A stretch of DNA of 64,000 nucleotides, taken from the NCBI GenBank assembly GCA_025612245.1, contig JAAXKQ010000014.1, positions 40,028-104,027 of the forward strand, written 5' to 3'. Positions 3,079 to 14,120 of this stretch are shown here, piece by piece. Numbering within the stretch: position 1 is the first letter of the stretch; the number at the start of each line of letters is the position of its first letter. Source of the stretch: Ignavibacteria bacterium. GTDB lineage: Bacteria > Bacteroidota > Ignavibacteria > Ignavibacteriales > SURF-24. Both the position numbers and the translations under genes were made by a program. Under the pieces are notes generated by a model, which saw only the letters and a list, made by a program, of their open reading frames with translations, was not told the DNA's origin and ran no database searches.

Positions 3079-4548
3079 TTATTTCATTTTCGACTGGCGC
3101 TCTTCGGCTTTCTGATTCCAGCCGGGAACTACCGTCCTTAGGAACTTTTCCTTTTCTCCTGTCATTTCTTCAATCTTCAGGCCCACGTAGTTCTGCGCTT
3201 TAAGCTTGTTTGAAAGATCCGGCATCGGAACGGGATCCGTGTAGCCGTGCTTTGCAAGCACCTGTGCTATCTGAAGTCTTGCATCCTGGATCCTTTTCAT
3301 GCAGGTGTTCAATATTCTCTGCGATTCCACTGGAGAATGAAAGCTATAACCGTTGGAAGCTGACACATAATCCCATCTCCACTGCGCATGGCGCAGAGAC
3401 TGCATGACCGGCTTCATTTCCTGTTCCGTTGCCCCCTTATCCCAGGCAAACTTGGCTTCTATGTGCGCCCGTGCCAGATCCCTTAGCGTGGTCCTTTTGC
3501 CTTCCTCAAATTTATCCTGCCTTTCATAAACGTTATTCCTTAACTGCTCTTCGCTTTCCCTGTGGCAGACCTGGCAGGCATTGGCAATGTCGTTCAACGG
3601 GCTCTGTATCTTGTGGTTTGTAAACTTCACGCCGCCTTCGCTGCGGTAGGGCATGTGACAGTCGGCACAGGCAAGTCCCCTGTTGGCGTGGATTCCGGTC
3701 TTGAACATTTCATAATCCGGGTGTTGTGCTTTCAGCATTGGAGCCCGGCTCAGGCTGTGTGTCCAGTCGGAGAAGTTCGCCCTGTCGTAATACCCTTCTA
3801 TTGAATCCACTATCATTCCCCTGTCCCATGGAAAAGTAAGGTAGTGTTCTTCCTTGCCCTTAAAGTAATATTCAACGTGGCACTGAGCGCATACCAGTGA
3901 GCGCATTTCCTGGTGTGTAGCTTTGGTTATGTCTTTTCCCTGGCGGGCAAAGGCCTCAATGAGCGCCGGACGTGTAATCCTGAGATTCATGGTTTTGGGG
4001 TCGTGACAGTCCTGGCAGCCGATGGGGTTATAAATTTCTGGTCCCATATCGAGCCAGGTACCTTTATAAAAATTGGCCACTCCCAACTGGTTCATTACCC
4101 TGGGTACGTCCGTACTCTTACAAGTCCAGCAGGTTGCCGGCTGAGGGGCCGTAGTTCTGAGTATATTCCTGATATCCTGAATTGCGTGGTAATGCCCCCG
4201 CCCCTGGTTATAGCCCTTTGAGAAGGAATATCCGGCCCAGATGACCACCAATTCAGGATCCTGGTCCAGGTAGTCAATCATTACTGAACCGCAGTATTTG
4301 CTCCTGAAGGTGGTGTCCATTGTGCCCAGGTAGCTCTGGTACTCCCGGGGATAATTCTCCCCCCATTTTTCATTTCTAGGCTCCCAGTCGGCTATAGGCT
4401 TAACCATCTGAAGCGCCGCGGATTCCTGCCTGCGTTCAACGATTGAAGAGGCCAGCATGCCGATAAGAAATACAATAACAACAGTACCCAGGAAAATCAG
4501 CCATGCAAGCCATGGCCTTCCTTTTATAATTTCCTGAATTGGTCGCAT
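3079..4548 (-). CDS. nrfA: ammonia-forming cytochrome c nitrite reductase, pentahaem NrfA
   Basis: 489 aa with N-terminal TM helix. Five haem-c motifs occur in NrfA order: the diagnostic lysine-ligated CWTCK, then CQDCH, CAQCH, CADCH, CQVCH. Sits 74 nt downstream of nrfH. Confidence 0.95.
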   Translation of the reverse strand: MRPIQEIIKGRPWLAWLIFLGTVVIVFLIGMLASSIVERRQESAALQMVKPIADWEPRNEKWGENYPREYQSYLGTMDTTFRSKYCGSVMIDYLDQDPELVVIWAGYSFSKGYNQGRGHYHAIQDIRNILRTTAPQPATCWTCKSTDVPRVMNQLGVANFYKGTWLDMGPEIYNPIGCQDCHDPKTMNLRITRPALIEAFARQGKDITKATHQEMRSLVCAQCHVEYYFKGKEEHYLTFPWDRGMIVDSIEGYYDRANFSDWTHSLSRAPMLKAQHPDYEMFKTGIHANRGLACADCHMPYRSEGGVKFTNHKIQSPLNDIANACQVCHRESEEQLRNNVYERQDKFEEGKRTTLRDLARAHIEAKFAWDKGATEQEMKPVMQSLRHAQWRWDYVSASNGYSFHSPVESQRILNTCMKRIQDARLQIAQVLAKHGYTDPVPMPDLSNKLKAQNYVGLKIEEMTGEKEKFLRTVVPGWNQKAEERQSKMK

Positions 4549-4622: not shown

Positions 4623-5255
4623 TTATTTACCGGAAGCGTTTTCTCCCCGTACAATTTTCCGCAGCCATTCGGGTACAATGGGTGAAAGGTTTGGCACTCT
4701 TGCATAAGGCGCCGAAGCCAGCCCGCGCACGCGTCCGTGCGGGGTTTCCCTGTGGCAGCTCCAGCATACCGGGCCTTCGCCTTTCTGGTAGTCCTTGAAC
4801 GTGACATTTCTTGCATAAACATTCTGCACACGGAAATAATGGCAGCGGATGCAGTTTTCCTGAACTACTCCGGCTCCGGCTTCCTTGATCTCAATTACCT
4901 GGGGCTCGAGCCTTAAGGTAAAAATAGTTGCGTGCCTCAGGCCGTCGCTTGCCTTGAAGAAGTATTTTCGTAAAAAGTTATCATGCGGAACGTGACAGTC
5001 GTTGCATGTAGCAACACGTCCGTGACTGCTGGTCTGCCAGGTGGCATACTGAGGGTTCATTACGTGACAGTTGACGCAGGCCTGCGGGTCATCGGAAAGA
5101 TATGAAACCGCATTTGATATGAAAAGCACATAAACTCCGAGCCCGGCAAAGATGCCAAGCAGTACAATTACCGGCACTTTCCACGCCTCCGGGGGAACAA
5201 ATACATTAACTATCCATTTGAGAACCGGGACTTTTTTCTGGGAATTATCCTGCAT
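4623..5255 (-). CDS. nrfH: tetrahaem membrane quinol dehydrogenase NrfH (NapC/NirT family)
   Basis: 210 aa with N-terminal TM helix and four CXXCH motifs (CVNCH, CNDCH, CIRCH, CWSCH). Immediately upstream of nrfA. Confidence 0.9.
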   Translation of the reverse strand: MQDNSQKKVPVLKWIVNVFVPPEAWKVPVIVLLGIFAGLGVYVLFISNAVSYLSDDPQACVNCHVMNPQYATWQTSSHGRVATCNDCHVPHDNFLRKYFFKASDGLRHATIFTLRLEPQVIEIKEAGAGVVQENCIRCHYFRVQNVYARNVTFKDYQKGEGPVCWSCHRETPHGRVRGLASAPYARVPNLSPIVPEWLRKIVRGENASGK

Positions 5256-5342
5256 AAAGCCGCTCCATTAAGTTCTTTTACGTAGTTAAATCTTTGTGTA
5301 TGGGTATATTAAGATAAGACTTTTAATTGAAAAGTAAATGCC

Positions 5343-5366
5343 CTGCAGTTAATTATTTAACTACAG
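5343..5366. promoter_or_regulatory. 10-4-10 imperfect palindrome upstream of nrfH (operator or weak terminator)
   Basis: CTGCAGTTAA-TTAT-TTAACTaCAG (9/10 arm match), 88-111 nt upstream of the nrfH ATG. Confidence 0.35.
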
Positions 5367-5487
5367 CGATTGCTAGGGAAAAACATTTCCGAACGGTTAA
5401 GACGAAAGGCTTTATTGGGCATAAGGAGGTAAAAAGCCGGAAAGATTCCAAGCTCCCTCCGGCCTTAGAAACTACTTGTGCGGCAGG

Positions 5488-5955: not shown

Positions 5956-5971
5956 CTCAATTATTGTGCCA
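5956..5971 (-). promoter_or_regulatory. candidate sigma54 (-24/-12) promoter
   Basis: The minus strand reads TGGCAC-AATAA-TTGAG. The -24 hexamer and spacing are perfect; the -12 element is TTGA instead of TTGC. It lies about 35 nt upstream of the ATG at 5922. Confidence 0.45.
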
Positions 5972-6016
5972 CCTGGTAAACCGCGTTAAATCCTGAGGGA
6001 TTAACCGTTCGGGAGT

Positions 6017-6061
6017 GTCTTAAAATGAGTCACAGGCAAGTAGCGTCTTAAAATGAATCAC
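6017..6061. promoter_or_regulatory. tandem 17-bp direct repeats, candidate enhancer (UAS) for the adjacent sigma54 activator
   Basis: GTCTTAAAATGAGTCAC (6017-6033) and GTCTTAAAATGAATCAC (6045-6061), 16/17 identical with 28-bp periodicity, 46-105 bp upstream of the -24 element. Confidence 0.4.
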
Positions 6062-6096: not shown

Positions 6097-6699
6097 TCAG
6101 GTAATATGATCTGAATCAATAATTTTGGAAAGGCTGTCATTATCGGGAGTTAATTTCACAAATGTATCTTTATAGCCGTTATTTGAGAGAATTCCGGAAC
6201 ACTCCGGGCAGTAGAAATTCCCTTTTATGTCAATTTCTTCGACACCCTGCGATGAGTGCATTACACAATTCCAGTTCCGGCAGTGAATGAGTCCCATATT
6301 GTGCCCCAGCTCATGGAGAATTTCCTTTAGTGATCTTTCATGCAGAAGTTTATCATTTGTTTTTCCGGAATAAAACTCCTCATGAAGACGGCACAAGGAG
6401 ACAATGGAATGCTTGCCGTTGAGCTGCGCCTCACCGAAGACATAGGTAAATACAGGAACAAACAGGTCGAATTCCACCAGCATGAGCACTTTCCCGTCGT
6501 ACGCCGGGGTAAGCTTCATTGCATCGGCAATCAGCTGTGTCGAGAAATACTGCCCCCTGTCCCGTGAATATGCCGCCGCCGTATTGAGGGGCAGACTGAT
6601 GAGCGAAACGTTATCCTTAAAGATGACGGAAATATCTTTTGTTATGCTATTTAATACCGAGACATTTGAAAATTCAATGGGGGCAATAAAAAACTTCAT
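6097..6699 (-). CDS. archaemetzincin-like zinc metalloprotease
   Basis: 200 aa. HELGHNMGLIHCRNWNCVMH...(16 aa)...CPEC fits the archaemetzincin signature HEXXHXXGX3CX4CXM...CXXC. The start ATG overlaps the stop of the upstream regulator by 1 nt (TGATG). Confidence 0.8.
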   Translation of the reverse strand: MKFFIAPIEFSNVSVLNSITKDISVIFKDNVSLISLPLNTAAAYSRDRGQYFSTQLIADAMKLTPAYDGKVLMLVEFDLFVPVFTYVFGEAQLNGKHSIVSLCRLHEEFYSGKTNDKLLHERSLKEILHELGHNMGLIHCRNWNCVMHSSQGVEEIDIKGNFYCPECSGILSNNGYKDTFVKLTPDNDSLSKIIDSDHIT

Positions 6700-8048
6700 C
6701 AGGATTTACGAAATCCATATTTATTAATTTTATTATAAAGTGTAACTCTGTCTATCTGCAGAGCCTCGGCGCTCTTGGAAATGTTCCAGTTATTCAGTTC
6801 CAACACGTTCATTATGTGCCTTTTCTCCACGCTTTCCAGGCTCTTGTCACCCTCGTCATCAAGCCTGTTATTGGGAGTTACATGGAACGGGAGGTCCTCA
6901 ATTTTAATTGAGTCGCCCCTTCCGACTACAAGAGCGCGCTCTATGGCATTTTCCAGCTCACGCACGTTTCCGGGCCAGCTGTAGTTGACAAGAAAATCCA
7001 TCGCCTCGTTTGAAATGTTCTTTATGTTCCTGTTCATGGCTGCATTGAACTTGTTCATGAAGTAGTAAGCCAGGATCGGGATGTCATCCCTTCTTTCCCT
7101 TAAAGGCGGAATAAAGATTGTAAATACATTAAGGCGGTAGTACAGATCCTCCCTGAACTTACCCTCTTTAAGGAGGTTTTCCAAAGGTTCGTTTGTCGCC
7201 GCAATGACCCTGAAATCGCTTTTAATGTTTTCATTGCCGCCGACGCGCATAAACTGCTTCGATTCAATCACCCTTAAAAGCTCTATCTGCATTTTTGGTG
7301 ACACCGTGCCGATCTCATCCAGGAAAATTGTTCCGCCGTCTGCCATTTCAAACTTGCCCTTGCGTTTATAGTGAGCACCCGTAAAGGCGCCTTTCTCGTG
7401 TCCGAAGAGCTCGCTTTCAAGGAGCGATTCTGCCAGAGCGCCGCAGTTTACCGTTACAATCGGGAAATATTTCCTCTTGCTGTTGATGTGGATTGCCTTT
7501 GCAACCAGTTCCTTTCCTGTTCCGCTTTCCCCGCGGATCATAACGGTCGTGTCGGTCTGTGCCACGGTATTAATAAGGTCAAATATTTTCAGCATCTGGC
7601 GGCTCTCGCCTATGAGGTTATCGGGCTTGATAATCTCGTTTATATTATCCTTCAGCTGTTCGTTTTCCTGCCTGAGCTCCTTCTGGTGAATTGCTTTTTC
7701 CACTATGTGTGCCAGTTCATCGGGGTCAATTGGCTTTGTAATGTAATCGTAGGCCCCGTTCTTTAGTGCCTTAATGGCGGTAGGCACTGAGGCAAAAGCA
7801 GTAATTAGAATGAAGATAGTATCCTTGTCGATCTCTTTTACTTTATCCAGCAGCTCAAGCCCGCTCATGCCGGGCATTTTCATGTCAACCAGCATCAGCT
7901 CATACTTGCCCTTTTCAATTATCTTTAAGGCTGCCTCGGCATCCTCGGCCGTATCAACATTGTATCCTTCCTCAATGAACCAGTGATAAAGGGATTCCCT
8001 TACGATTTTTTCGTCATCTACAATTAAAATACTTTGTTTACTCTTCAT
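6699..8048 (-). CDS. sigma54-dependent response regulator (NtrC family)
   Basis: 449 aa. Receiver domain has VDDE and the [13 protein letters not shown] phospho-Asp. AAA+ domain has [14 protein letters not shown] and FLDEIG. C-terminal Fis-type HTH is [19 protein letters not shown]. Confidence 0.9.
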
Positions 8049-8063
8049 TCTTTTCTCAATTTT

Positions 8064-9680
8064 TTAATTTTTCTTTAACGGCAGTGTAATTTTGAAGGTC
8101 GTTCCTTTGGGTGAAGTTGACTCAACTTCAATTCTGCCCTTATGATGATCTATAATTCCGTAGGCCACGGCAAGCCCCAGACCCGTGCCTTTGGATTTCT
8201 GTTTTGTTGAATAGAAGGGTTCGAATATGTGCGGAAGATCCTTTTCGGAAATTCCGTAGCCTTCGTCAACAATTCTAATTACGGCATCCTTTTCGTTGCA
8301 ATCCAGCTTTACCTTAAGCGTTCCGCCGCTGGGCATGGCTTCAATTGCATTTATGAGAAGTGAGATCAAAGCCTGCTGTATCTTCTGCGAATCGCCTTCC
8401 ATGATCACAGGCTGATCCTTGCACTCTTTCTCCATTTTGATCTTGTTGATCTCAAGGTGATGATTTATAAGAAGTATGCACTTGTCAACGATGGCGTTAA
8501 GGTCCTCTGCCGCAAATTCATCTGTGCCCCTGTGCGAGAAAAGCAGCAGGTCCTTTACAATCCTTCCGCAGCGCGCGGATTCCTCGGATATCAGGCACAG
8601 GTACTCAAGTATATTTTTGTACTCGTTATCCTGCTGCATTTTACCGAGCTTTCTTGAGACCAGCTTGCTGTAGGTTAAAATGCCTTCCAGCGGATTATTA
8701 AGCTCGTGTGCAACTGTAGCCGAAAGCTTTCCTAGTGAGGCCAGTTTTTCAATCTGTATGATCTGGTCGTATATCTTCTTAAGCTCCTCGGTTTTCTCCT
8801 TTACCTTCTCATTGAGCGTTTCCGACCATTCCTTGATTTCCTTATACGCAAGGTCGAGCTTGCCGCCCATGTTGTTAAACTGCCCGGCCATTATGCCAAG
8901 TTCGTTTTTGGACTCTACGTCGATCTTGTATCGAAGGTTCCCCTTTCCCAGCTCCTCTATTCCGCGGTTGATCTTCTTTACTGGACGGTTAACTACAATC
9001 GAGATAAAGAGCCAGATAACCACCGCAATTACAAAAGTAACAAGAATTGAGGTGGTAACAACGCTTGAAATGTTGCCCGCTATGATCTCATCGGCATGTT
9101 TCATTGAAACCACAACGTCCAGAACGCCCAAAATCTTTACGTTTTTGTCGTGCGCGTGGCAGCCCGAACTGGAGCAGTCCTCCTCATTATAAATTGGATT
9201 AATGAGCCCCAGGACTCTTGAGCCGTCCTCCTTCTTAAAAAGCCTGATCTTATCCTTTACAGGCAGCGTTGCAACGAGCTTTCCCTGGCTGTGGCAGGCA
9301 ATGCAAGCCTCGGCCTTTTTATCCATATTTCTCCCGATTTCAGTGCTGTCGGTTGAAAATATAACGCGGCCCTGCTTGTTGTATATCCTGATCTTCTCCA
9401 CGCCGCTTTCTGTCCCGATGGTCTTAATGATCTGGTGCACGTCGTAACTGCGGTTGAGCATCATGCTGTAGCGCGTGGACTTTTTTATAATATCGCTGAT
9501 ATTATATGCGTTTTGAGAGTAGGAATTTGTAAGATCCCTTTCAAGTGTTGTAAGGGTATAGATTGTCTGAAAGCCAAGATTAACCAGGAGAATCAGCGCT
9601 ATGACTAATATCAGCTTAAAACTTAACTTATTATAAAATTTGATCTTCATGGAAATTAGGCTTTTTAAAAATCTCACCAA
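8064..9680 (-). CDS. sensor histidine kinase with periplasmic domain carrying c-type haem motifs
   Basis: 538 aa. Two TM helices flank a ~165-aa loop containing CIACH and CSSSGCH. This is followed by a HAMP-like linker, the H-box VAHELNNPL, N-box LLINAIEA, and G-boxes DEGYGI and GTGLGL. An alternative start is the ATG at 9650. Confidence 0.85.
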   Translation of the reverse strand: MVRFLKSLISMKIKFYNKLSFKLILVIALILLVNLGFQTIYTLTTLERDLTNSYSQNAYNISDIIKKSTRYSMMLNRSYDVHQIIKTIGTESGVEKIRIYNKQGRVIFSTDSTEIGRNMDKKAEACIACHSQGKLVATLPVKDKIRLFKKEDGSRVLGLINPIYNEEDCSSSGCHAHDKNVKILGVLDVVVSMKHADEIIAGNISSVVTTSILVTFVIAVVIWLFISIVVNRPVKKINRGIEELGKGNLRYKIDVESKNELGIMAGQFNNMGGKLDLAYKEIKEWSETLNEKVKEKTEELKKIYDQIIQIEKLASLGKLSATVAHELNNPLEGILTYSKLVSRKLGKMQQDNEYKNILEYLCLISEESARCGRIVKDLLLFSHRGTDEFAAEDLNAIVDKCILLINHHLEINKIKMEKECKDQPVIMEGDSQKIQQALISLLINAIEAMPSGGTLKVKLDCNEKDAVIRIVDEGYGISEKDLPHIFEPFYSTKQKSKGTGLGLAVAYGIIDHHKGRIEVESTSPKGTTFKITLPLKKN

Positions 9681-9784
9681 AAACTATCTAATTATGCCGT
9701 GAATTGCAAGGAATTTTATAGGACAAAAGGGTTCTTTTAACCCGGCGGCAATCCTGCATTACCATTTCCCTGCAATGACCTTTA

Positions 9785-9828
9785 AAAAGAGCAAAGCCGG
9801 ACCCTGCTCCAAAGGCACGGACCGGCTT
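9785..9828 (-). terminator. probable terminator after the cytochrome c operon
   Basis: AAGCCGG...CCGGCTT stem with partly paired interior, followed on the minus strand by GCTCTTTTT. Confidence 0.4.
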
Positions 9829-9888
9829 CAAAAAACTCTCTGGGAAATACTGAAGCCTTACGGCTTCAAAAAAAATCAGGCATTGGAA

Positions 9889-10389
9889 TTATGAATGTTT
9901 AACCATGTTCCATTTCTTGTTGTAATCGAACGGCTTGTACGTCGGGCTGTTCGGGTTATGGCACTTTTTGCACAGTGAAGCGTCACCCTTACCCATAATG
10001 AGGCCGTTCTTCTTGGCAAGATTGGGATCTTTCATTACGTTCATAGCCTTATAGTCCGAACCCGGTCCGTGGCAGCTTTCGCATGAAACGCCTTCGTCTT
10101 TCTTGGCTGAATTTGTAACGTGGCAGTTCAGGCACTTTTCGGAGGAGACAGGATCTGAAATCTTCAGTTTTGCAGCTACGTCTTTAGCCTTCTGGCTTTT
10201 GAGTGTCTCAAAGGCTTTTGCGTGGTCTGTTGACTGCCATTTTTCGTGAACGTTATTGCCTTTAGCACCTTTATGGCAAGCCGAGCACATCTTTTCACCC
10301 ACATATTTGTGCTGAGCCTGAACATTAGAGTTAAGTACCATCAGCGAAACAAACATAACCGGTAATATATAAAGAATAATTCTTTTCAT
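9889..10389 (-). CDS. periplasmic tetrahaem cytochrome c
   Basis: 166 aa with Sec signal (VSLMVLNSNVQAQ) and four CXXCH motifs (CSACH, CLNCH, CESCH, CKKCH). Confidence 0.85.
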   Translation of the reverse strand: MKRIILYILPVMFVSLMVLNSNVQAQHKYVGEKMCSACHKGAKGNNVHEKWQSTDHAKAFETLKSQKAKDVAAKLKISDPVSSEKCLNCHVTNSAKKDEGVSCESCHGPGSDYKAMNVMKDPNLAKKNGLIMGKGDASLCKKCHNPNSPTYKPFDYNKKWNMVKHS

Positions 10390-10401
10390 CGTTTTTAACC
10401 C

Positions 10402-11124
10402 TTACTTAAATAATGTTTTTAATATACTTAGATATTTTTCCCTGCCAATAACTTCATAAAGGTACTGAACGTCCGTACCGCCGTCCATCATTGTAAGTCC
10501 CACTTCCGGATAGTCGATTTCAAAGCGGGTCAGTTCCCTGGTCACAGAAATGATATCCCTGTGATAGTCGGAAACAGGAATTGTATTGGCACCGAGTTCC
10601 TCCCTGGAAGTCTCGATCAGGCTTACCCACCTCTCATGCGGAATCTGCGTCTCGGGATTTGTGATATTTCCCAGACAGGAAAAGTTGATCGGCGAAGAAA
10701 TTGTAACACTTCCCCAGGTCCCGTTCAGCTTAAGAAACGGATCCCCTTTCTGAACCTTATCCGATGCGTTGCAGTACTCTATGCCTGTAAGGCTGTTATC
10801 CAGCAGGTCTATTGCAACAGGACTGAAGCCCATATAATAGGTATTTGCAAAGAGGTTCTTTACGACCAGATGGTTCTTGAAATAGAGCATCTGATTCTTA
10901 AATTCCGCATGTTCGATTTCATTTATTATAGCCTGAATGATATTCTGGCCTTTCGACCTTTCTTTCAACTCCTCTTCCCTTTTCCCAAAGTGCTGTATAT
11001 TGCGCATCGACTTGTCAAAAAGGCAATTATCGCAGTCAAAATTCCTGTCGCAAAGCTTATAATCCACAATCTTCGAAGCCATCCAGATACATTGCAGATT
11101 GCTATAATTATTTTTTTTATTCAT
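10402..11124 (-). CDS. Cys-rich N-terminus + GcvH-like domain protein (paralogue of 13103-13777)
   Basis: N-terminal C-x12-C-x5-C-x2-C (LQC...YKLCDRNFDCDNC). The central region aligns with the glycine-cleavage H fold but lacks the lipoyl Lys. The C-terminal GLTMMDGG motif is shared with the paralogue. The ORF track extends to a GTG at 11151; I prefer the ATG at 11124. Confidence 0.5.
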   Translation of the reverse strand: MNKKNNYSNLQCIWMASKIVDYKLCDRNFDCDNCLFDKSMRNIQHFGKREEELKERSKGQNIIQAIINEIEHAEFKNQMLYFKNHLVVKNLFANTYYMGFSPVAIDLLDNSLTGIEYCNASDKVQKGDPFLKLNGTWGSVTISSPINFSCLGNITNPETQIPHERWVSLIETSREELGANTIPVSDYHRDIISVTRELTRFEIDYPEVGLTMMDGGTDVQYLYEVIGREKYLSILKTLFK

Positions 11125-11150
11125 GTTAATCACTAAAATGTAATTAAACA

Positions 11151-12326
11151 CTATTCACTTAAAATTGCTTCTCTGCCATGAACAGCTTCGCTTTCCTCAC
11201 TCTCACCTTCATGAAGCTCTTCGAAAACAGGGAAGTTCTGAGTTATTAGTTTAAAGGCAACCATACCAACTGTAACCAGCATCATGGTAATGCTGATTTC
11301 GTAAACTGACGGAAAGTAATTGTAGTTAGCCGACCCGGTAAGGGATGTAATGCTAACGTTGACTCTGTTCAGGAGGAACCCGCCAATTACAAATAAAGCA
11401 GAAATGTAGAGCCATTTTCTGCTTTCTCTGAACTTTTTCTGCGAGAGCAGATAAACCGGGATAACGGTACCGATGAAAAGTTCAAGATAAAACATGTATG
11501 TTTCGCTCGAGGAAATTAACAAATAATTTAGTTTATTCAAAATCGCCAGATCGATAAATCTTACCGCAGCCGTAAGAATAAGCATAACGAAAGTGATTTT
11601 TGCTATGCTCGAAAGCAAATTGAGCTTGATGCCGTGATTAAAGGCACGAGCGCTTGTATAGGATTCGAAAATGACCATTGCAAAACCCGTTGCTATGGCA
11701 CTCATGTAAAAGTAAACAGGTAGTATGGGCGAATACCATAACGGGTGCATCTTTGTAGGGACGATGAGGAAAAGCGAGCCCAAAGACGACTGGTGGAGCG
11801 TTGAAAGAAGAATGCCAAGCATCATAATTGGAATAGATACTTTTCTCATGATCATAAGAAGCTTGTTTAGTTTGAACCTTTCCAGAATGACCGGGGCAAA
11901 TTCCAGGAACAGTACGGTAGTATAGAGCATAACACACCATGCGACTTCAAACATTACCGAATGAGTATTCCACATGATTATTGCGTGCCAGATGTTCCAG
12001 GGTTTTCCAAGGTCGGCCAGAAGCCCGAAAATGACGAGCAGGTATCCCAGGAATGCAGTTAGTATTGAAGGCCTGGTTAAGGGCTCAAATTTCTTGATGT
12101 TGAATATATGTGTAACGGCACATATTGTAAAACCGCCTGCGGCAAGACCCACACCACAAAGTATATCGAAGCCTATCCACAGCCCCCATGGAAAGACGTC
12201 GTTCAGGTTTGTTGCTGCCCCTAATCCCCGGGAAAATCTGAAAACAACCGAATACAAACCTGCGGCAATAATGATAACAGCAACGGCTTTCCAAAACGTT
12301 AACTTAAAGATTGATCCTGTCTTCAT
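11151..12326 (-). CDS. NrfD/PsrC-family polytopic membrane (quinone-interacting) subunit
   Basis: 391 aa with roughly 10 hydrophobic helices. It follows the 4Fe-4S subunit by 2 nt, the typical NrfC-NrfD gene order. Confidence 0.8.
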   Translation of the reverse strand: MKTGSIFKLTFWKAVAVIIIAAGLYSVVFRFSRGLGAATNLNDVFPWGLWIGFDILCGVGLAAGGFTICAVTHIFNIKKFEPLTRPSILTAFLGYLLVIFGLLADLGKPWNIWHAIIMWNTHSVMFEVAWCVMLYTTVLFLEFAPVILERFKLNKLLMIMRKVSIPIMMLGILLSTLHQSSLGSLFLIVPTKMHPLWYSPILPVYFYMSAIATGFAMVIFESYTSARAFNHGIKLNLLSSIAKITFVMLILTAAVRFIDLAILNKLNYLLISSSETYMFYLELFIGTVIPVYLLSQKKFRESRKWLYISALFVIGGFLLNRVNVSITSLTGSANYNYFPSVYEISITMMLVTVGMVAFKLITQNFPVFEELHEGESEESEAVHGREAILSE

Positions 12327-12328
12327 GA

Positions 12329-13087
12329 TTATTTATTCCCTTCCTGTTGTTTTTCTTTTGCAATTTTGTTCTTTCTGTTCGTAAGCCAGTACATGCCTGT
12401 CAGAAAAGCGCCTCCAACTCCTACAACGCCCGGTATCTTTTCCAGTGCGCGGGCTGTGTAATTCGGCAATGCTTCCTTTGGCAGGTTAGCTGCAAAGCCG
12501 AGCTTTTCAAAGGGTACGGATGACAAAATAAGTACATTGCTTCCGCCTGCTTCTTCAAGTCCGTAAATGTGCTGATAGTAAGTATCGGGATTTTCTTTCA
12601 GCCTCTTTTTGGCCTCGGCCTTCAGATCCTCCAGGTCCCCGAACAGCGTTGCACCCGTAGGGCAGGCTTCCGAACAGGCAGTACCCTCGCCTTTTTTGAT
12701 CTTGTCGTAGCACATAATGCACTTTCTGACGCGCGGGTTGGTTTTGCTCCATTCGTAGCGCGGAACTCTGTGCGGGCAGGCCTGCATGCAGTAGCGGCAG
12801 CCAATGCACTTGTCGGCATCGTAAAGAACCGGTCCCAGTTCTGTTTTTGTGAATGCACCTACCGGACATACAGAAACGCAGGTGGGTTTCTGGCAGTGCA
12901 TGCACATTCTTCTCGTATATTTATCGTCGTGCTGTTCAACAACTGTATAGGTCTCTGCTGAAAGGTGATCTCTCAGGGGATCGGAATTCGTCTTGGCAAG
13001 TTTATTCTGAGCTTTGCATGCATTATAGCACTCACCGCATCCTACGCATAAAGTCGAATCATACAAAATGCCTTTTTGTTTTACCAT
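12329..13087 (-). CDS. 4x[4Fe-4S] ferredoxin-type subunit (NrfC/PsrB/HybA family) with C-terminal TM anchor, no Tat signal
   Basis: Four cluster motifs: CVGCGECYNAC, CMHCQKPTCVSVCP, CIGCRYCMQACP, CIMC...CSEACP. C-terminal helix is VVGVGGAFLTGMYWL. The ATG at 13087 is preceded by GAGGA. The N-terminus has no RR motif. Confidence 0.85.
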   Translation of the reverse strand: MVKQKGILYDSTLCVGCGECYNACKAQNKLAKTNSDPLRDHLSAETYTVVEQHDDKYTRRMCMHCQKPTCVSVCPVGAFTKTELGPVLYDADKCIGCRYCMQACPHRVPRYEWSKTNPRVRKCIMCYDKIKKGEGTACSEACPTGATLFGDLEDLKAEAKKRLKENPDTYYQHIYGLEEAGGSNVLILSSVPFEKLGFAANLPKEALPNYTARALEKIPGVVGVGGAFLTGMYWLTNRKNKIAKEKQQEGNK

Positions 13088-13102
13088 CGTGGTGATCCTC
13101 AA

Positions 13103-13777
13103 TTAAAAAGTTAAAAATTCATTCTCAAAGTTCTTCAGGCCTTCAGGACTTACATTGGAAACTGCGCCTTCAACGATGTTACCGCCATCGTGCATTGTAA
13201 CACCGGCAAGCTCGGGCTTGATGCTGCTGAGTTCAATAAAATCTCTTAGCCTTCTGAATTCCTCTTTCAGCCAGGCAGAAAGCGATTCACCGGTTTTAAG
13301 AACCTTGCTGTTCATCTCCCAGTTGGAAGGATCTATTACGAGAGCCCAGCCGTTTGTAAAAGGTTCGGTAAGTGGTTTGTTAAGAATTGCACTGTTAACA
13401 AGCTTTACAGTTCCGTCAACAGGACTTCTGAAGCTAAAGGGATTGTTGCTGCAGGCGCCTTCAATTATCACCTCACCCTGTTTAACCTTAGTCTCTCCGG
13501 AAGCGATTTTGGTTATGGATAACCTGCCTAAAGCCTTTAATGCAAAATCATCAACCCCTATCTTGAGCGTCCCGTCCTGCAGCTTTTCTGCCCAGGTATG
13601 GCCTTTTGAAACGTAGACCTCCTTTGGAATGGCTATGCTCCCCTTATTGAAAACAGCACCAGGAGTTTTTTCGAATGCGGGATGACTTTTCTTCTGAGCC
13701 TTCAGAACGAAAATGTCTATCACCACAAACAAAGCAAAAGTAAGTAATACAAATAATGCTACCATGATATTCCTCAT
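13103..13777 (-). CDS. membrane-anchored GcvH-like domain protein
   Basis: 224 aa with an N-terminal TM helix. SKGHTWAEKLQDGTLKIGVDDFALKALGRL...IIEGACSNNPFSFRSPVDGTVKLVN...NGWALVI aligns along the whole GcvH fold. The lipoyl-Lys position (ESVK) reads EGAC. Confidence 0.55.
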   Translation of the reverse strand: MRNIMVALFVLLTFALFVVIDIFVLKAQKKSHPAFEKTPGAVFNKGSIAIPKEVYVSKGHTWAEKLQDGTLKIGVDDFALKALGRLSITKIASGETKVKQGEVIIEGACSNNPFSFRSPVDGTVKLVNSAILNKPLTEPFTNGWALVIDPSNWEMNSKVLKTGESLSAWLKEEFRRLRDFIELSSIKPELAGVTMHDGGNIVEGAVSNVSPEGLKNFENEFLTF

Positions 13778-13918
13778 TATGTTTTATTGTATATCTATTG
13801 TACAACAAAATGCATACCACTTCACAACAAAGCCATAATTATCACCATAAATCTTTATTTTTTAAGCATTTACGGGACTTTTCATCTTTGTCCATTATTT
13901 CCTTTTTCCGGTCCTCTT

Positions 13919-14120
13919 TGTTGAAATATTCAACAGCATTTTTTAGAAATTCCGGCTAATTGCGAATTTGCACCATGCCGGGCATATTCGATGTGTTTAA
14001 TTTCTCCACAGTTGTTTGTTGAAATTAATTACACTTTTAATATCTGGTTGCCGATTTTTCAACACTATCTGCGCCCCGGTTCTATAATATTTTAACACAT
14101 CCTCTATTAAGGTGTTGAAA
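13919..14120. promoter_or_regulatory. cluster of five TGTTGAA(A) motifs in the divergent promoter region
   Basis: TGTTGAA-ATA-TTCAACA perfect 7-3-7 palindrome at 13919-13935. Further copies lie at 14017-14024 (+), 14057-14064 (-) and 14113-14120 (+). Confidence 0.3.

Follow-up and report, generated by a model that had tools for sequence, protein, structure and literature searches.

A sensor histidine kinase with two predicted haem c sites, probably regulating an adjacent membrane redox operon in an Ignavibacteria bacterium

Our analysis concerned a sensor histidine kinase and its genomic surroundings on a stretch of 64,000 nucleotides (the window, whose own numbering is used here) from the genome of an Ignavibacteria bacterium (assembly GCA_025612245.1, contig JAAXKQ010000014.1). 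The kinase gene lies at 8064..9650 on the minus strand and was delimited by its open reading frame (ORF) and translation, by Pfam matches to HAMP, HisKA and HATPase_c, and by the start consensus of its homologues. The ORF is free of stop codons from 8064 to 9680 and would encode 538 residues from a TTG at 9680. Since the consensus of 30 homologues begins with MKxKxxNRLS, translation probably starts at the ATG at 9650 (528 aa). Residue numbers (M73, C126, H177 etc.) are given in the 538-aa frame from the TTG at 9680; counted from the ATG, the two motifs described below begin at C116 and C159. The kinase is single-copy in its own genome.

A Kyte-Doolittle scan predicts a first membrane helix at approximately residues 22-42 (9555..9617, minus strand), preceded by a Lys-rich N-terminus of putative cytoplasmic location (MKIKFYNKLSFK), and hydropathy likewise predicts a second helix at approximately residues 208-230 (8991..9059, minus strand). 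The second helix is followed by the stretch NRPVKKINR and by a cytoplasmic transmitter consisting of HAMP, HisKA (with the H-box AHELNNP) and HATPase_c domains (8073..8993, minus strand; Pfam E-values 4e-10, 2e-11 and 5e-27, respectively). Because the Lys-rich N-terminus precedes the first helix and NRPVKKINR and HAMP follow the second, the 165-residue loop in between (nt 9065-9560) is predicted to be periplasmic, i.e. to lie where haem c is attached. A first-pass annotation of this DNA, made without database searches, had likewise placed the loop outside and had read two Cys-His motifs in it as haem attachment sites. The translation has both motifs at the positions given there: CIACH (C126-H130, nt 9291-9305, minus strand) is a predicted extra CXXCH haem c site, and CSSSGCH (C169-H175, nt 9156-9176) continues with a conserved His177 as CSSSGCHAH (C169-H177, 9150..9176, minus strand), a predicted CX4CH haem c site at the canonical position of the sensor family to which the loop was assigned. 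These two are the only C-x(2-4)-CH motifs of the protein. A third element is the codon of Met73 (9462..9464, minus strand), a residue that may be the distal axial ligand to the canonical haem.

Both motifs turned out to be strongly conserved. In a word-indexed search with the loop, 394 of 797 candidate proteins reached E<=0.001. Of the best 120 of these (54-90% identical), whose sources are mostly named Ignavibacteriales or Ignavibacteria, 119 carry a CXXCH motif and, 43 residues on, a CX4CH motif; the lone exception (P0108) is missing the first motif. A HMMER search of 1.84 billion cluster representatives (50% identity) gave 1153 matches at E<=0.001, 603 at 1e-10 and 105 at 1e-30. Among the best 150 of the 1153 representatives (36-60% identical), 136 encode CXXCH and CX4CH motifs 43 residues apart, four have CXXCH at both sites, two combine CXXCH with CX3CH, six have the first motif alone and two the second motif alone. 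Four of the eight single-motif representatives (P0140, P0173, P0218 and P0264) stand outside the full-coverage alignment described below. Three of these four are short (P0140, P0173 and P0264, 172-188 aa), the terminal sequence of P0140, P0218 and P0264 is no longer family-like, Ser replaces the first Cys in P0165, P0246 shows CX5CH, and two diverge around the motif segment. A third search, seeded with the distant member P0222, found 1022 proteins at E<=0.001, with named members from Holophagaceae, Holophaga, Geothrix sp., Vicinamibacteria and Candidatus Eisenbacteria. From this Acidobacteriota branch 118 of the 1022 were newly fetched, and both motifs are present in 117 of them, with 43-residue spacing in 113 and the CH-A-H continuation in 117. 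Going by the sources' own names, two-motif sensors span Ignavibacteria, Acidobacteriota (Holophagaceae, Geothrix, Vicinamibacteria) and Eisenbacteria.

For a position-by-position view, the query was aligned with 255 homologues (256 rows), 15 of 270 fetched sequences having been left out for incomplete coverage. M73, G104 and G185 are present in all 256 rows and the residues of the first motif (C126, C129 and H130) in 255 each, as are C174, R146, L184 and D188. C169 and H175 are each kept in 253 rows, N165 in 249, R98 in 248 and H177 in 244. The positions between the motif cysteines are free to vary. Near-invariant Cys and His residues with variable residues between them place the conservation of both motifs far beyond chance, and the motifs noted in the first-pass annotation are thus a conserved property of the orthologues (119/120, 136/150 and 117/118 in the three samples).

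The sensor domain itself (approximately residues 43-207, 9060..9554, minus strand) was identified as a single-Cache domain by Pfam, by a match to a solved structure, by an AlphaFold2 model and by matches of this model to Cache structures. The Pfam family PF21563 (Mcp40H-20_sensor, the sensor of Geobacter class-40H chemoreceptors) matched residues 60-183 of the 528-aa protein with 32.5 bits against a cut-off of 27, and with 31.9 bits in a six-frame search of the genome; no match to it was found in 14 named control genomes. In the protein-cluster leads PF21563 is annotated on 15-37% of cluster members, with Thermodesulfobacteriota as the commonest phylum. Pfam sCache_3_2 gave a weak match to the loop, and PF11845 was not among the nine Pfam families matched by the kinase at E<=0.01. 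Searched against the PDB sequences, the single loop sequence matched 3b42, the sensor domain of GSU0935, with an E-value of 5e-4; a 33-member family profile improved this to 8.6e-7 and also matched 3b47 (GSU0582) at 1e-4. In the alignment with GSU0935, CSSSGCH falls on CQSCH (Cys140/Cys143/His144), with two extra residues between the cysteines, and Met73 on chain position 26 of 3b42. This position corresponds to Met60, because chain position 106 is Cys140 and the offset is therefore 34. CIACH falls where the loop of GSU0935 is shorter and contains neither Cys nor His.

The AlphaFold2 model was built from 149 sequences and reached a mean pLDDT (predicted local distance difference test) of 88.8 and a pTM (predicted template modelling score) of 0.83. 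It has a long N-terminal helix (41-74) that ends at Met73, a second helix and two strands, a long beta2-beta3 connection (110-144) within which CIACH lies, and a C-terminal part in which two strands and a short helix that contains C169 are followed by a final strand and a C-terminal helix. Foldseek matched the model to 3b42 (E 1e-6, 24% identity) and to WalK (E 2e-7), and VIA-align to WalK (Z 15.9, root mean square deviation 2.1 over 137 residues) and to CitA and DcuS (Z approximately 11). Superposition on 3b42 gave a high root mean square deviation, which fits the domain-swapped crystal form of this domain. The loop is thus a single-Cache domain of the GSU0935/GSU0582 haem c sensor family, in which the canonical motif appears to have been stretched and a second haem site added. 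The first-pass annotation had left the choice between a Cache/PAS-like and a cytochrome-like domain to a profile search, and this search came out on the Cache/PAS-like side. Wolinella NrfA (1fs7) was also matched by the family profile, if weakly (full-sequence E 0.003, per-stretch E 0.17), over its residues 280-313; this match covers the strand, loop and CXXCH of the extra haem site (window approximately 9290-9420) and, on the NrfA side, its fifth CXXCH. This match could indicate a cytochrome origin of the added motif, or it could be due to chance. If it is genuine, the segment of the first haem may derive from an NrfA-type cytochrome and would then be a second fragment taken up independently into a Cache scaffold.

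The haem of GSU0935 is attached through Cys140 and Cys143 and has His144 and Met60 as axial ligands (PMC8396549). Met60 is described as binding the reduced haem and being released upon oxidation, and GSU0582 and GSU0935 as binding nitric oxide (NO) in both redox states and, in reduced form, carbon monoxide (CO), in place of Met60 (PMC8396549). The kinase shares with GSU0935 and GSU0582 (3B42 and 3B47, PF21563) sequence homology, the Cache/PAS-like fold, a periplasmic location between two membrane helices, a haem motif after the same beta strand and an axial Met at the same helix position. It differs from them in carrying CX4CH instead of CXXCH at the canonical site, a second, strictly conserved CXXCH within a loop that is longer by approximately 12 residues, and a conserved His at the second position beyond the proximal one. 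Furthermore, the Geobacter proteins are chemoreceptors, whereas the domain is here part of a histidine kinase paired with a sigma-54 regulator, and the identity is approximately 24%. Because the domain search leads to this family, a covalently haem-loaded periplasmic domain is the best reading of the kinase loop; haem loading and the assignment of the ligands are both deduced from sequence comparison. For a sixth ligand of the extra haem, His177 is the only residue available among the conserved His and Met positions of the 256-row alignment. The genome encodes CcmE together with several c-type cytochromes, and its only match to ResB (System II) is weak and below threshold. The Ccm system matures CX4CH sites in cytochromes c3.

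The four cysteines and three histidines could in principle also chelate zinc or iron, and the motifs might serve, as a metal site or as disulfides, to stabilise a Cache domain of the ordinary ligand-binding kind. However, the strictly kept patterns C-x2-CH and C-x4-CH, in which a His directly follows the second Cys in over 250 of the 256 rows, are the signature of haem c, the domain is predicted to be periplasmic, and a cytochrome c maturation protein is encoded in the genome. We regard a role without haem as highly improbable, since the second motif and Met73 align with the crystallographic haem site of GSU0935.

The kinase gene is directly followed on the minus strand by a gene for an NtrC-type response regulator (6699..8048) with a receiver, a sigma-54 AAA+ and a Fis-type helix-turn-helix domain (Pfam E-values 1.5e-31, 5.6e-70 and 4e-13, respectively). 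GAFTGA and GESGTGKE are both present in its translation, and rpoN is present in the genome (Sigma54_DBD, E 2.8e-60, contig C5). The sigma-54 activator that had been noted behind the kinase is thus real, as judged by its Pfam domains and its presence in every related locus that could be assessed. The stop codon of the regulator gene is overlapped by a gene for an archaemetzincin-like M54 peptidase (6097..6699, minus strand; PF07998, E 1e-22). On the other side of the kinase lies an operon of five genes on the same strand (9889..13777; Pfam and NCBIfam), which is the candidate target of the pair. It encodes a GcvH-like protein (13103-13777), a HybA/HmcB-like Fe-S protein (12329-13102), a HybB/HmcC/NrfD-like membrane subunit (11151-12326), a second GcvH-like protein, orf249 (10402-11151), and a tetrahaem cytochrome c (9889-10389). 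The first GcvH-like protein reads EGAC by eye at what we take to be the lipoyl-lysine position of the H-protein motif. The HybA/HmcB-like protein begins at position 35-38 of the HmcB/HybA model, and no twin-arginine signal was apparent in it by eye.

Gene order was compared by tblastn with the window genes. The comparison covered 80 related loci, the best of 499 that were confirmed, taken with flanks of up to 10 kb on either side, and each count is limited to loci with enough flank. The titles of these 80 loci are of Ignavibacteria type, with a few Bacteroidetes or 'bacterium' entries and one Syntrophomonadaceae. The regulator is in place in 70 of 70 loci and the M54 peptidase in 59 of 69. Upstream, in the same strand and order, orf249 was found in 65 of 73 loci, the HybB/HmcC-like gene in 46 of 64, and the HybA/HmcB-like and GcvH-like genes in 47 of 64 each. 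Genes for HmcB-like and HmcC-like proteins both occur anywhere within the 10 kb on either side in 56 of 64 loci, and the tetrahaem cytochrome is in place in three of 70. The conserved set consists of the GcvH-like/HybA-like/HybB-like operon, the kinase, the sigma-54 regulator and the M54 peptidase. Beyond the peptidase the genes differ between loci, and a conserved target downstream of it was ruled out on this ground. The one Syntrophomonadaceae entry (L002, JBLNAZ010000227.1, labelled as a metagenome-assembled genome) encodes the same gene set as the window, including nrfHA, with proteins 58-97% identical (response regulator 97%, HmcB-like protein 96%, NrfA 92%, sensor 91%); this contig has probably been mis-binned.

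A sigma-54-type -24/-12 element, TGGTAT-N5-TTGT, is located at 13804..13819 on the minus strand (with TGGTATGCATTTTG at 13806-13819), approximately 42 nt before the start codon of the GcvH-like gene. The pattern TGGYAY-N5-TTG is not enriched in the window (three found, 2.4 expected), and the canonical TGGCAC-N5-TTGCW with up to two mismatches is not enriched there either (33 found, 31 expected). The argument for a promoter comes from position, because two of the three matches precede the GcvH-like gene and a small gene, orf144, and the third (46285) lies inside an ORF. Over a promoter set of 47 loci, window included, [TC]GG[CT]A[CT]-N5-TTG occurs before the GcvH-like gene; its distance from the gene is 41-55 nt in 28 loci, while 18 others have it at 307-353 nt and one at 156 nt. 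Approximately 100 nt upstream of the operon promoter we found a perfect palindrome, TGTTGAA-N3-TTCAACA (13919..13935; TGTTGAATATTTCAACA), a candidate enhancer site to which the response regulator may bind. The 7-mer TGTTGAA/TTCAACA is present within 260 nt upstream of the promoter in 42 of the 47 regions, far above other words that do not consist of A and T only. The 4.84-Mb genome has two copies of the perfect palindrome, of which the window copy is the intergenic one; the other perfect copy and three one-mismatch sites all lie inside ORFs, and no promoter-like element was found within 500 nt of them. With up to two mismatches the palindrome gives 57 matches per strand in the whole genome, against eight for a reversed control. 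For NtrC-type activators it is usual to find a palindrome approximately 100 nt upstream of the -24/-12 promoter. Between the cytochrome gene and the kinase gene, at 9770-9888 on the minus strand, two strong hairpins are predicted (-46.9 kcal/mol, z -4.9, none of 200 shuffles as stable), the second of them followed by a U run; they probably act there as a terminator or attenuator.

The first-pass annotation had pointed to nrfHA nearby and had named the NrfS/NrfR pair of Desulfovibrio vulgaris as a possible parallel. The genes nrfH (4623-5255) and nrfA (3079-4548) are indeed present on the same strand, 0.8 kb past the M54 gene and orf144; TIGR03153 and NF008339 cover the two, with NCBIfam scores over cut-off, and NrfA contains CWTCK and four CXXCH. 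NrfS/NrfR of Desulfovibrio vulgaris and D. desulfuricans, like the pair studied here, combines a membrane kinase and a sigma-54 regulator beside nrfHA, and is described as a genuine sigma-54 two-component system that activates these genes (PMC5701242, PMC12285233); the signal that it senses is described as still to be revealed (PMC5701242). A kinase-regulator pair that senses nitrite, or NO derived from it, and activates the adjacent nrfHA might therefore be imagined, and the closest relative, L002, has the same arrangement, and a further locus, L005, contains nrfH. The comparison across loci does not bear this out: nrfA follows within 6.6 kb downstream in one of 57 related loci and nrfH within 5 kb in two of 63, and neither gene was found in the 42 loci with 9-kb flanks on both sides. 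In L003, whose sensor is 90% identical, a PorV-like gene comes directly after orf144 and nrfHA is missing, so that nrfHA at the window locus looks like a recent lineage-specific insertion. The 232 nt upstream of nrfH (5256-5487) contain neither TGGYAY-N5-TTG nor the palindrome with up to three mismatches, a scan that did not include the NrfR consensus, and a 13-bp hairpin with a U run closes orf144 and separates it from nrfH. Non-conserved adjacency and the lack of such a sigma-54 element before nrfH in the window distinguish the pair from NrfS/NrfR, and we consider regulation of nrfHA by it quite unlikely. What the first-pass annotation had proposed therefore holds in part: motifs, topology and assignment to a haem c family are consistent with a haem-loaded periplasmic sensor, and the conserved partner appears to be the upstream operon instead of nrfHA.

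The gene orf144 is itself preceded by a sigma-54-type promoter, TGGCAC-N5-TTGA (5956-5971, minus strand), and by two 20-nt direct repeats (GTGAYTCATTTTAAGACRCT; 6014-6033 and 6042-6061, minus strand). The promoter is kept in all five loci that hold an orf144 homologue, and in three of these, namely the window, L002 and L003, the repeats too can be recognised clearly. The gene encodes 144 aa with one N-terminal membrane helix and a tail rich in Gln, Ser and Tyr.

We propose, with a probability of roughly 0.6, that the kinase is a two-haem redox or gas sensor that controls the GcvH-like/HybA-like/HybB-like operon through the sigma-54 regulator. What we observed are the motifs and how well they are conserved, the homology and fold class of the domain, the order of the genes and the promoter elements; from these we infer haem loading, the ligands, the signal and the pairing of the regulator with its site. 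Specifically, the periplasmic single-Cache domain would carry two covalent c-type haems. Haem 2, at the canonical Geobacter site, would be attached through C169 and C174 with His175 as proximal and Met73 as distal ligand, the latter sitting on the N-terminal helix that runs on from membrane helix 1. Haem 1, in the beta2-beta3 loop, would be attached through C126 and C129 with His130 as proximal ligand; His177 is the one further conserved candidate ligand. If the domain works like its Geobacter counterparts, Met73 might be displaced when the haem changes its oxidation state or binds NO or CO; this displacement would shift the helix, and the signal would pass through helix 2 and HAMP to the kinase. 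Haem 1 would most likely take in or relay electrons and in this way link the switch haem with the pool of cytochromes in the periplasm. The kinase would then phosphorylate the adjacent NtrC-type regulator, which together with sigma-54 would activate the neighbouring quinone-module operon from the palindromic upstream site.

Several observations weigh against this proposal or limit it. The four representatives with CXXCH as second motif are missing His177, and its role as a ligand of haem 1 is for this reason a guess. In the structural model, the lowest confidence (pLDDT 67-68) falls on the loop that contains CIACH. In the window, the -12 element reads TTGT (operon) or TTGA (orf144) where the canonical sequence is TTGC, and the candidate pairing of regulator and palindrome comes from their co-occurrence. 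The promoter before orf144 could be the real target of the regulator or an additional one. Because the hairpins at 9770-9888 intervene, the kinase may have its own promoter and may not be co-transcribed with the operon. Finally, the sequence data do not separate redox sensing from the sensing of gases or anions.

On this last point, a possible if tentative alternative is that the domain senses a small ligand (NO, perhaps CO, nitrite or sulfite) which displaces the distal ligand of one haem, the second haem tuning affinity or being structural. It differs from the redox proposal in the signal alone. The binding of NO and CO by GSU0582 and GSU0935 in place of Met60 speaks for it (PMC8396549), as does a 2026 preprint in which signalling-type haem Cache domains are presented as sensors of NO and not of oxygen (PMC12889525). 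Furthermore, haem 1 has no invariant second ligand besides His177 and could therefore be five-coordinate, and the near-invariant Arg98 (248/256) and Arg146 (255/256) could hold an anion. These arginines could however equally bind haem propionates. In the conserved candidate target operon, which encodes a quinone-linked Fe-S/membrane module, no enzyme that converts NO, nitrite or sulfite can be recognised, and nrfHA is adjacent in just one or two of approximately 60 loci.

Another, rather doubtful idea extends the two-haem redox sensor proposed above and treats the haems as an electron wire, with the kinase as a terminal branch of the periplasmic electron-transfer network. Haem 1, with bis-His ligation by His130 and His177, would be reduced directly by the cytochrome pool or by the very HybA/HybB-like module that the kinase controls, and would pass its electrons to the His/Met switch haem. 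If this were true, the cell would measure the electron flux through the module and adjust the synthesis of the module to it.

Relatives of the sensor have been mentioned in the literature. GSU0591 and GSU0599 of G. sulfurreducens and Adeh_2011 and Adeh_3383 of Anaeromyxobacter dehalogenans are reported as homologues of GSU0935 and GSU0582 with 'an additional heme-binding motif' (PMC3831638) and are listed among signal transducers with two CX2-4CH motifs (PMC8396549); the comparison with these four is by description only. The sCache_heme domains (DUF3365/Tll0287-like, PF11845) also are Cache domains, with a covalent c-type haem on a short, late-inserted helix, are fused to kinases, chemoreceptors and cyclic-di-GMP enzymes, and have been proposed as NO sensors (PMC12889525). 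They differ in having a single CXXCH, and the main text of the preprint uses no two-haem terms (PMC12889525). A distant relationship is likely, because the data set of the preprint takes in GSU0582 and GSU0935 by PSI-BLAST (PMC12889525). DcrA of Desulfovibrio vulgaris, again compared by description only, has a periplasmic c-type haem as well and is a proposed redox or oxygen sensor (PMC8396549), and it differs as a chemoreceptor with one haem. Structure and spectroscopy have been used to characterise single-haem sensors (PMC8396549, PMC3460858). The forms studied so far are single-haem only, and our literature search found two-haem sensors mentioned in print and no characterisation of them.

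Periplasm-facing haem c sensors are the strongest candidates for the means by which anaerobes perceive redox state beyond the cytoplasm. The kinase described here is probably a two-haem variant of this known kind of sensor, regulating the upstream membrane redox operon and not nrfHA, and in annotation the kinase-regulator pair should not be called NrfS/NrfR merely because nrfHA is nearby in one genome. The two-haem branch is large and extends over several phyla, with 1153 representatives at E<=0.001 and both motifs in 136 of the best 150. It comes with a testable output, namely one regulator, one palindrome and one operon. If the sensor indeed contains two haems of distinct potentials and a methionine switch, it would provide a worked example of redox-to-transcription signalling, and it would bring a functional assignment of the undescribed GcvH-like/HybAB-like membrane module closer.

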